A DNA stretch of 61,134 bases, filler included, from an uncultured bacterium (GCA_964449065.1; 2 parts of 2 records of this genome joined end to end with filler, not necessarily neighbours in it); one strand, 5' to 3'; counted from the first letter of the whole stretch, positions 1 to 3,000 are shown. Numbers are program-made.

Positions 1-3000
1 ACAATCAAAACTCAATCTCTAAATCAAATTACACTTAATTATCACTATCGTTAACAGTTTATTTTGCCTCGTCAAAAAATAACGGCTGGCTATCCGTTGT
101 CCCCCCTTGTTAAGGGGGCTAGGGGGGATCAATCCCCGTCAATAAATCGTTGACACAGTACTAGCGTGAGTTTACGAGTTAGCAAAATATGATTTTGTAA
201 GATGTTGGAATATNNNNNNNNNNACCCGAAATGAGCCTTAACCGACTCAGTTCTAAAACAATTAAAAAAATTCCTGTATTTCAATTCTTTCTATAAATCT
301 AAGTTGGTCTACAATATAGCAATAATTGTTCAAAGTCAATACCTCAAAAAAATAAATATAAAAATGCAATATTTGTTTACGCCCGGCAGATTGTGGAACA
401 ATACGTGATCCACTACAACACCGTTCGGCTGCACAGCGCAATTGGCAACCTCACGCCGCAATATAATACGGATTCAAATAAATTCTATTGATTCCTCCAT
501 AAAAGGGGAACATCGGCTTCCAGCCGGTACCGCACACCGCCTATTATTTCATTGAAGCGGTATAATTTAATATCGTGCAATTCGTGCGATTGCCAAGGCA
601 TGAAAGAATTGATCTAACAATTGCAGAGCAATATCCTATGCTTGCCTAGATTTAATTACGCCACCAGCATACAGCACTTCTTATATTTTTTTCCACTGCC
701 GCAAGGGCAGGGATCATTTCGTCCAATCCCTTGCGCTTCGGCATAGCTCCGTAGTTCGTTCTGTTGTTGGGCGAAATACTCTTGTTCTTCACGCTGGCGG
801 TCGGCAATCCATTGATCGGCCAACCGTTGCAAATCATTGTGAGCGTGTGCGAAGAACATCTTAAACGATTCGCAGAAGTGGTTCGATCCATTGTCTGCCG
901 GGTCGCGGATACGGTCTTTGGTACAGCCGCCCTGGCAATAGCGCAGCCATTCGCATTCCGGGCATTCCGGCGGTAAATCTGACTTCATACAACCGAATTG
1001 GTTCTGATGATCGCTGTTTAAGAAGTCAACAATCCGGCCTTCCATCAGGTTGCCCAAGCGCCAATCGTCTTCCACAAAAAAGTCGCAGGAATAAATATCG
1101 CCGTTGTGTTCGACCACCACATAGCAGCCGCACTCCTTCAGCAGGGTGCAATCCGGTGGAGCCATATCTACATACAAATGAAATACCGAATCGAAATAAC
1201 GCACCGAGGTGGTAGGCAAATCGCCGTTAAAATCTTTCTTCCAGCAATCGAAGATGCGGCACAAGAATTCGCCGTATTGCTCAGCTGAGACTGAAAACGG
1301 GGCGGCTTTGGAGGGATCACGGGGATCGCGCTCCACACAGGGGATGAACTGCATAAACTCAAAGCCCAAGTCTTTGTGGAAATCGTATATTTCTTCCGGA
1401 TGTTGGGCGGAATAATCGTTCACAACCACCAACGCGTTGGTCGCTACCCCCCGGTCTAGCAATCGTTTGGCGGTATCATGCACCTTTGCCCAAGATGTAC
1501 CGCCGCCTTTGGTGATGCGGTAATGGTCATGGATGTGTTCCGGGCCGTCTAAGGATAAGCCGATGAGAAAGTTGTAGCGGTTAAAGAACTGGCACCATTC
1601 ATCGGAAATGAGAACACCGTTGGTTTGGAAGCCGTTGCCCACGTTTTGGCCGTCGCGCCCGTATTTTTGCTGAAATTCCACCGCTTTTTTGTAGAAATCG
1701 AGACCGAGAAGCGTCGGTTCGCCGCCTTGCCAGCCGAAGGACAAATCGTTGCCGCCCGACTGCATCACCTGCTTGACCATCTCTTCCATCACTTCGACGG
1801 ACATGCGGTGCTTTTTCTGTTCGGGATACAGTTCCGCCTTTTCCAAATAAAAGCAGTAGATACAATCCAGGTTACAGTCAGCGCCCGAAGGCTTTATCAG
1901 CACCGATTGCAGTGTCTTGGTGTGTTTGGGTTGAAGGACCGGTAGTTCTAACATAAGTCTCCCCTTTTTTTAATTCCATAACAGACTAAAACAAATTTCA
2001 AAAAAATGAAAGAACTCTTCCCAAAAACTTTTAGGATTTGTTATACTATTCACAGTTGGTACAAGAGGATGTTACCATGAAATTTTTATATGTCATGTTA
2101 AGTTCCATTTGGGTCTCGTACTCCTGGGTCTGTTACGACGCGCTGCAATGGAAACCGCCGTTTGAAATGCCTCCACACGTCCGTGAAATTTTGGAAACTA
2201 GAAGTCAAGAAGACATCGAGCGCGGTATCCGGCAGGCGCAATTGTATTTGGATTCGGCCAAATTAACCAACTTTCAGCGCGCGGAAGCGAAGCGTGATCT
2301 CGCCACCGGTTACTGGCTGAAAGCCTTCTTCCAAGATTCGCGCAAAACCCAATCGGCGTATTTGCACCTATCGATTCAAGAGTTGGAAGACTATATGAAA
2401 ATCGTTCCGGGCCATAAAAAGGCCAACGGCTGGATGGCGGATGTCTATCACATTCTGCAAGACTATGAAACCGCAGACCGCTATTATAAAGAAGCCCGCA
2501 AACACCACCCGGAAGACCGCTTCTTCCGCATTCGCCACCGCGAAATGAAGCAAAAGTGGGACCGGATGACGCAAGCGAATACGCAGGAAAAAAGGATGGG
2601 TTGAAGCAGAATCCATCAAGCGGTTTCACGATCCAATTCTGTAATAGAAAAGCAACACCTCAATCCATGCAGGATATACAACAGAGCATGGTTCAATTTG
2701 CTATCGCTGTTTTCCAGCGTGCATTCAATCAAGCGGGACACACAATCTCACAAACAACAAGGACGGATTCTGTCTATCCAACTCTGGAATGCTTTCGTAT
2801 TATATAGGAAGAAAAAATTGGGCAGGCGTCAACAAGGAGGAGAATCTCAAGCCGAAAAGGAGTCGGAAAGACCTGAAATTGGGACGCCGCGCCTGCCCCT
2901 CAACCCGAATGGGAACAGCATGTGTTGTGCTTTTGCTTCTTTTTTCACCTCGGGCGTTGCCCTAGACTATGATAGATAACCTCTTTGGGGTAAATGGTTC

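Follow-up and report, generated by a model that had tools for sequence, protein, structure and literature searches.

A SecA-type SEC-C tail on an anaerobic sulfatase maturase, a possible ribosome tether

In the window analysed here, the whole stretch of 61,134 nucleotides from the genome of an uncultured bacterium (GCA_964449065.1), one gene encodes a complete member of the anSME family of anaerobic sulfatase maturases that ends in a SEC-C motif of the type found at the tail of SecA (Table 1). This architecture is common and can be seen in Pfam annotations, and it is unstudied in the papers that could be searched, as no paper on an anSME with SEC-C was found among the Creative Commons main texts of PubMed Central or in bioRxiv. 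Our best reading, drawn largely by analogy and given a probability of roughly 45%, is that the tail may be an optional ribosome tether with which the maturase would reach the catalytic cysteine of a sulfatase before the substrate folds in the cytoplasm. A preliminary description of this gene had proposed that the tail docks the maturase on the partner of the SecA tail (ribosome exit site, SecB-type chaperone or SecA itself). The ribosome-exit and unfolded-chain part of that proposal stays, by analogy, our best reading, whereas the part that involves SecB and SecA fails when SecB, Tat substrates and SecA tails are considered.

Table 1. Features of the maturase gene and of two other genes of the window
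Feature	Position	Strand	Basis
anSME gene with C-terminal SEC-C tail, 432 aa	656..1954	-	ORF, Pfam, TIGR03942, fold match
Radical SAM domain, residues 26-192, CxxxCxxC at C27/C31/C34	1379..1879	-	PF04055
SPASM region, putative auxiliary-cluster cysteines C269, C275, C290, C344; C331, C334, C340, C361	872..1150	-	alignment to anSMEcpe
C-terminal helix prolonged as charged stalk (predicted), residues 361-407	734..874	-	AlphaFold2 model
Net basic SEC-C motif of the SecA metal-binding type, residues 412-429	668..721	-	PF02810
Small divergent TPR-like gene, hydrophobic N-terminus	2077..2604	+	weak TPR matches below cut-off
Cys-type sulfatase, one of 49 candidate substrates	23803..25608	+	PF00884 and motif

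The open reading frame, Pfam and TIGR03942 all bear out the combination of maturase and SEC-C. The whole 432-residue protein reaches 432.2 bits against TIGR03942 (cut-off 349.45), and Pfam recognizes Radical_SAM (residues 26-192), SPASM (277-335) and SEC-C (412-429). Among 142 aligned sequences, the three radical SAM cysteines are invariant; the eight SPASM cysteines align with the eight auxiliary-cluster ligands of anSMEcpe (PMC5682303), seven of them being invariant and C275 being present in 90% or more. An AlphaFold2 model built with 142 sequences (mean pLDDT 95.8) gave PDB entries 4k36-4k39 as best Foldseek matches, with TM values of 0.77/0.91 to 4k39. The protein therefore shares its family score, its 3 + 8 cluster cysteines and its fold with anSMEcpe (PDB 4K36-4K39), E. 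coli AslB and TIGR03942, and its activity, the conversion of cysteine to formylglycine on sulfatases, is predicted from family, ligands and fold. It differs from anSMEcpe and AslB by about 50 extra C-terminal residues that form, in the model, a long helix followed by SEC-C. Around the gene, a scan for promoters and terminators yielded no more than in shuffled sequences, and the neighbouring TPR-like gene has a homolog at 16 of 30 maturase loci of the phylum.

By its sequence, the tail is a member of the SEC-C family PF02810 (E 7.3e-11, 42.2 bits against a cut-off of 20.4). The motif reads C416-x-C418-x8-C427-C428 and, with Ser420 present, is of the CxCxSx6C[CH] type. The CxCxSx6CC motif and the basic face are shared with SecA's metal-binding domain (MBD) (PF02810; PDB 1OZB, 1SX0); in contrast to SecA, the carrier is a radical SAM enzyme from a phylum in which SecB exceeded its cut-off in none of 35 genomes, and the linker, disordered in SecA, is predicted to be helical. 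What had been described as a linker between SPASM and tail is read here as a charged helical stalk, because the last SPASM helix of the model runs on unbroken from residue 361 to residue 407 (47 residues, block pLDDT 90-98) and carries the SEC-C motif at its tip. Among 105 close homologs, 47 to 67 residues separate the tail from the last SPASM cysteine motif and a proline occurs in 55 of the sequences, so the stalk is not rigid in all of them. Conservation of the tail extends to positions outside the search pattern: among 64 divergent tails (median net charge +4), an asparagine is kept in 63, an arginine in 53 and two lysines in 58 and 62. Such positions are also conserved in the 119 close tails, 115 of which end in CC.

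How widespread the tail appears depends on the query. The 119 of 120 best homologs with PF02810 described previously were reproduced, together with 14 parvulin fusions and 2 proteins with SurA_N-type domains only, but the query for that figure included the tail. With a core-only query, the tail was present in 40 of the 150 best cluster representatives (50% clustering, broad pattern), in 38 of them with a stricter pattern, and in 32 of the 117 that have a complete core. These counts suggest that roughly a quarter of anaerobic sulfatase maturases are tailed and that tailless ones are the majority. Within the phylum, a maturase was matched in all but one of 35 genomes, and 31 of these 34 maturases are tailed, one frameshifted and one split gene counted in.

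On a tree of 194 maturase cores (65 tailed), 39 changes of state are needed, compared with 47-63 when the labels are shuffled; for the 117 cluster representatives alone, the 25 changes are near random (24-32 shuffled). A single tailed clade was rejected (p-AU 0.001) with a 38-sequence subset, in a test made after the larger tree had been inspected, and even close relatives differ in their tail state (L129 vs L133 and L139). Tailed and tailless cores are interleaved, which implies many gains or losses of the tail, repeated loss being as possible as repeated gain. Given this interleaving, the earlier statement that the tail is an addition is not established; anSMEcpe (370 aa) and E. coli AslB (411 aa) have no tail.

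The similarity of the tail to SecA is an argument for the reading in which SecB, a SecB-type chaperone or SecA would be the docking partner of the maturase tail, formylglycine formation being thereby coupled to the Sec export of sulfatases that are still unfolded. As described previously, this maturase and SecA provide the only two PF02810 matches of the genome. Their tails are identical over 21 consecutive residues. Across these 21 residues, 13 shared codons differ synonymously, which rules out a recent gene conversion or copy from secA and weakens the identity as support. In 26 genomes of the phylum, the maturase tail is slightly closer to the SecA tail of its own genome than in shuffled pairs (18.0 vs 17.65 of 22; p 0.002, or 0.014 without this genome, kin genomes not being independent). 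As a sign of co-evolution with the own SecA tail, the excess is small (0.35 of 22 positions) and confounded by kinship. SecB is reported to be bound by the MBDs of SecA and AscA (bioRxiv 10.1101/613315; 10.1101/2020.07.21.215244), and two Cys-type sulfatases of this genome resemble Sec lipoproteins by eye.

Other observations point the opposite way. SecB exceeded the cut-off in none of 35 phylum genomes, 18 of which are at least 90% complete, with three weak sub-threshold matches; the earlier caveat that no SecB gene was found in this genome thus extends to the phylum, and no SecB or SecB-like partner for the tail was found in either. In a wider set, which covers 50 of the 80 wider loci and counts one tailed maturase with a frameshifted tail, 5 of 50 genomes have SecB, that is 1 of 26 with a tailed and 4 of 24 with a tailless maturase. 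Three genomes (G031, G032 and G033) keep the maturase tail next to a complete SecA without SEC-C, and G028 lacks SEC-C on both proteins (the SecA end of G034 is unreadable). Conversely, E. coli AslB is tailless although it adjoins the Ser-type AslA, which has a Sec-like leader, and so are the maturases of six genomes whose sulfatases are mostly of the non-twin-arginine type (G056, G066, G070, G075, G076 and G084; 16 to at least 150 sulfatases scored among the matches listed). Like the maturase, the E. coli accessory Sec chaperone AscA/YecA bears an MBD at its C-terminus without being a SecA, and its MBD-dependent ribosome binding is a precedent for a tether; unlike it, the maturase has no Pfam match to UPF0149, no SecB partner and, as likely clients, Tat substrates rather than Sec clients. 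With SecB in 0 of 35 genomes, 38 of 44 sulfatase N-termini of the Tat type (see below) and the tail kept where SecA is tailless, the Sec reading is unsupported, as is the proposed physical link to Sec targeting. The evidence points away from the tail as a means of engaging SecB or the Sec pathway, and we regard docking on these partners as very improbable.

The sulfatases give 51 matches in 49 frames of this genome. A Cys-type motif was recognized by pattern in 40 of the 49 and a Ser-type motif in none, and two more Cys-type variants were identified by eye. A strict RR-x-hydrophobic-hydrophobic motif lies up to 50 residues ahead of the catalytic domain in 36 of the 49, the background being 111 of 1377 other long frames (first 70 residues). 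Moreover, a profile of the twin-arginine sulfatase N-terminus matched at 44 places, and in 38 of these the match begins with the RR motif, in line with the previous caveat that many sulfatases may use Tat; TatC is also present. Because twin-arginine motifs mark the Tat route for folded proteins, most sulfatases are predicted from these motifs to leave by Tat after folding in the cytoplasm. For the sulfatase of the window, the signal region is hidden by an N run (23835-23934).

The best sulfatase match starts at RR in 18 of 23 genomes with a tailed and 8 of 22 with a tailless maturase (Fisher p 0.007), in a count that omits two genomes absent from the tree and four tailed genomes of the 50 and scores four tailless genomes, whose matches lie beyond those listed, as non-Tat from their E-values. 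The association comes down to five independent pairs on supported branches, for which the sign test is not significant, and the tail as a marker of Tat substrates was rejected as a trend only. Indeed, tailless maturases occur in G002, G003 and G028, which have 25-53 sulfatase matches mostly of the twin-arginine type, and tailed ones in G049 (0 of 3), G079 (0 of 1) and G082, which have no clear Tat sulfatase. The tail is thus neither required for nor confined to Tat substrates. Linkage to tat genes was seen at 3 of 80 wider loci, probably as one event since all three are Pontiellaceae-like, and at none of 30 phylum loci (1.5-kb flanks). The sulfatases of the tat-linked Pontiellaceae genomes are mostly of the non-twin-arginine type, and the linkage was given little weight. 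In the available text of a Tat review, the word 'sulfatase' does not occur.

Nine FGE-type proteins had been pointed out as possible alternative maturases. We found 11 FGE-domain matches in nine frames, three of the matches being cut by contig ends, and the count of nine stands. Solved FGE enzymes have two cysteines after RGGS, whereas none of the eight readable FGE segments has this catalytic pair, so the caveat is weakened and FGE was rejected as a second maturase. A six-frame scan found the FGE catalytic motif once, on a contig without an FGE-domain match. In this genome, which is 87% complete, the anSME is the one maturase that could be identified for the roughly 42 Cys-type sulfatases.

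A possible chaperone partner was seen in other lineages. An N-terminal SurA/parvulin-type part without hydrophobic leader occurs in 21 of the fetched maturases (17 tailed and 4 tailless), and at the three Pontiellaceae-like loci the same family is encoded by a separate gene that immediately follows the maturase and precedes tatB-like and tatC genes. Such a fusion or adjacency is as expected of an enzyme that acts on unfolded chains. With the queries used, no signal-less parvulin, fused or adjacent, was found in this genome or phylum; the best parvulin matches were longer proteins with 24-38% identity, those of G000 having hydrophobic N-terminal leaders.

SEC-C is not confined to secretion proteins, as had been cautioned. 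From these genomes, 36 carriers other than SecA and anSME were collected: two methionine aminopeptidases, four YchJ, two UPF0149, five DUF1186 and two retropepsin-like proteins, single TPR, HEAT and Xre/MbcA proteins, and others with SEC-C as sole Pfam match. Both methionine aminopeptidases are of type I and exceed the cut-offs of TIGR00500 and PRK12318, the latter model starting at the SEC-C segment. Fusions of deformylase and SEC-C are also known, and they prompted a pattern search. The deformylase metal motif was in frame with SEC-C in at least 118 of 119 metagenome stretches among the matches listed and in 46 of 46 viral contigs; the pattern was designed for this fusion, and these numbers show its existence rather than its frequency. 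All of the six such proteins scanned match TIGR00079 (75-105 bits), one of them above the cut-off. Their SEC-C sits where E. coli deformylase has the basic C-terminal helix by which it is recruited to the ribosome (PMC3130931), and the deformylase of the present genome has a helix-type end. Like the maturase, the SEC-C aminopeptidases (PRK12318) and deformylases modify newly made chains and bear the same motif; unlike it, they trim the N-termini of most proteins, and the ribosome binding of their SEC-C is putative.

Several reports bear on what the motif may do. As a SUMO fusion, the isolated MBD of SecA co-sediments with ribosomes, to which it binds weakly; the SecA tail crosslinks to uL23, and the MBD is kept in 52 species without SecB (PMC6620043). 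AscA is reported to use its MBD to bind SecB and ribosomes, and the same study describes a second MBD protein in 92 of 156 species, with at least 18 functions, as a proposed toolkit; it has already put forward the general idea that ribosomes or the Sec machinery gain new functions through SEC-C fusions (bioRxiv 10.1101/2020.07.21.215244).

On these grounds, the ribosome tether might operate as follows. An ordinary anSME core would oxidise the catalytic cysteine of sulfatases to formylglycine. This target cysteine, some 70-90 residues into the protein, becomes buried on folding and would have to be modified earlier. By analogy with SecA, YecA and YchJ, SEC-C would bind one zinc or iron ion and show a basic face, and on its helical or flexible stalk it may bind weakly to the ribosome surface near the exit tunnel. 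The maturase would then be more likely to encounter nascent sulfatases early enough, the tail being an optional booster, probably gained or lost many times. The tether is favoured by the presence of SEC-C on enzymes acting on nascent chains (methionine aminopeptidase, 2 of 36 carriers, and deformylase), by conserved and positively charged tails (median +4 among the 64 divergent ones) in the absence of SecB as a partner (over the cut-off in 0 of 35 phylum genomes), by the ribosome binding of the SecA and AscA MBDs, by Cys-type substrates of the Tat type and by the SurA/parvulin fusions. Observations that count against it are the tailless maturases of the Tat-rich genomes, the tailed maturases of the three genomes without a clear Tat sulfatase, the promiscuity of SEC-C across unrelated carriers, the weak ribosome affinity of the isolated MBD (PMC6620043) and the nearest solved tail, which belongs to YchJ, a reported redox dimer and DNA binder.

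This last resemblance leads to a redox or metal role, in which iron bound by the four cysteines would serve as a sink or relay for the spare electron of the oxidation, the tail would be a dock for an acidic flavodoxin or ferredoxin, or the CC pair would be an oxygen-sensitive switch as in YchJ. The solved sequence nearest to the tail is the YchJ C-terminus (9l6b_C), ahead of the SecA tails. Like the maturase tail, YchJ (UPF0225; PDB 9L6B) ends in KK[FY]KKCC, and its terminal CC and lysines are reported to drive redox dimerization and DNA binding in a redox-sensing protein that also contains an NTF2-like core and, at its N-terminus, a second motif (PMC13377102). The maturase has the CC pair, as do nearly all close tails, and lacks both a match to the core (PF17775) and any hint of DNA binding. 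SecA-like MBDs are described as binding iron, for which a conserved serine is needed (bioRxiv 10.1101/613315), and Ser420 is its counterpart here; moreover, the auxiliary clusters of anSMEs are thought to be an electron path, the function of which is called ill understood (PMC5682303). In the model, however, the tail lies at the far end of the 47-residue helix, which would keep it remote from the clusters provided that the stalk is rigid, and the same basic residues are conserved on SecA, aminopeptidase and deformylase, which are not redox proteins. Most maturases are tailless, and the ones known to be active in vitro are tailless. We consider a redox role unlikely. A mobile appendage, easily added or lost and kept for polyanion binding, solubility or stability rather than for a specific job in maturation, has support from the tree and from the spread of the motif: no fewer than 39 switches between tailed and tailless across 194 maturases, a near-random pattern among the 117 representatives, rejection of a single clade, close relatives that differ, and many unrelated carriers of SEC-C. 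Against it, 31 of the 34 phylum maturases are tailed, and the surface residues of the tail are near-invariant while the linker drifts, a combination that calls for selection towards a specific partner or fold. We regard an appendage of this kind as rather improbable.

A functional tie between sulfatase maturation and export is not new: in 2003, Marquordt et al. reportedly found AtsB to depend on the signal peptide of the Ser-type sulfatase that it modifies. Returning to the ribosome tether, a wider version, which extends the analogy, can be put forward only tentatively: deformylase, methionine aminopeptidase, SecA, AscA and roughly one in four anSMEs might all use SEC-C as a portable tether to the ribosome exit, which in the last case would serve co-translational formylglycine formation. 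It is possible, at the same tentative level, that the anSME is a ribosome-associated radical SAM enzyme and acts before its substrates fold in the cytoplasm and leave by Tat, aided in some lineages by a parvulin chaperone of its own.

The tail has only 20 residues and can be deleted, or transferred to a tailless maturase, which makes the timing of maturation testable. If the tether is false, what is left is a common domain architecture, visible in the databases, on an ordinary enzyme. If it is true, SEC-C would have a function in lineages without SecB, a radical SAM enzyme would join the ribosome-exit factors, and the making of active Tat-type sulfatases may be improved.

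In three Pontiellaceae-like genomes (loci L129, L133 and L139), the anaerobic sulfatase maturase (anSME) gene stands in the order aroC, anSME, a signal-less SurA/parvulin gene, tatB-like and tatC, with tatA also present in the array at L129. Within each array, all genes are encoded on a single strand and either overlap or are separated by very few bases, and the SEC-C tail is found on the maturase at two of these loci and is absent from the third. The enterobacterium of L155 has SecB and is the sole case of a tailed maturase with SecB among the genomes searched. Separately, in five maturase fusions (P0126, P0128, P0122, P0028 and P0030) the parvulin domain has been lost, and all that remains of the fused portion is a truncated SurA-like segment at the N-terminus.

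SEC-C is also carried by other enzymes. It ends the peptide deformylases of L219-L337 and L338-L383, retrieved with a pattern built for that fusion, at the usual site of the ribosome-docking helix, and many of these come from viral contigs. The SecA proteins of four phylum genomes (G032, G031, G033 and G028; L384-L387) have a basic, arginine/lysine-rich end in place of SEC-C, and this end is conserved across the four.

Close to the maturase in the window, the short fragment 3' of the gene appears similar to the terminal part of an IS3-type integrase. Gene names in the division and cell wall cluster were assigned by eye from translations.

Coordinates of the features (numbered within each locus or along the window)
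Feature	Location	Strand	Remark
aroC-anSME-SurA/parvulin-tat array	L129 5043-8911		
aroC-anSME-SurA/parvulin-tat array	L133 4908-8657		
aroC-anSME-SurA/parvulin-tat array	L139 5088-8778		
Tailed maturase, enterobacterium	L155 4974-6278		inserted between metE and dienelactone-hydrolase-like gene
Small TPR-like gene	window 2077-2604	+	divergent from maturase; homologue at 16/30 phylum loci
Short fragment	window 363-482	+	3' of maturase
Division/cell wall cluster, ordinary	window 3174-18106	-	ftsZ, ftsA, ftsQ, mur genes, ftsW, mraY, ftsI, rsmH
Type I methionine aminopeptidase (PRK12318)	L178 154-1059		SEC-C N-terminal
Type I methionine aminopeptidase (PRK12318)	L201 929-2128		SEC-C N-terminal
Retropepsin-like aspartyl protease	L069 218-856		SEC-C C-terminal; phylum genome
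Retropepsin-like aspartyl protease	L075 159-737		SEC-C C-terminal; second phylum genome

In the source genome, the sulfatase-domain proteins of contigs C43, C34 (C34:4232), C3, C229 and C506 have Thr at the Cys/Ser position of the formylglycine motif and lack a twin-arginine leader. These Thr-type proteins are probably not substrates of the maturase.
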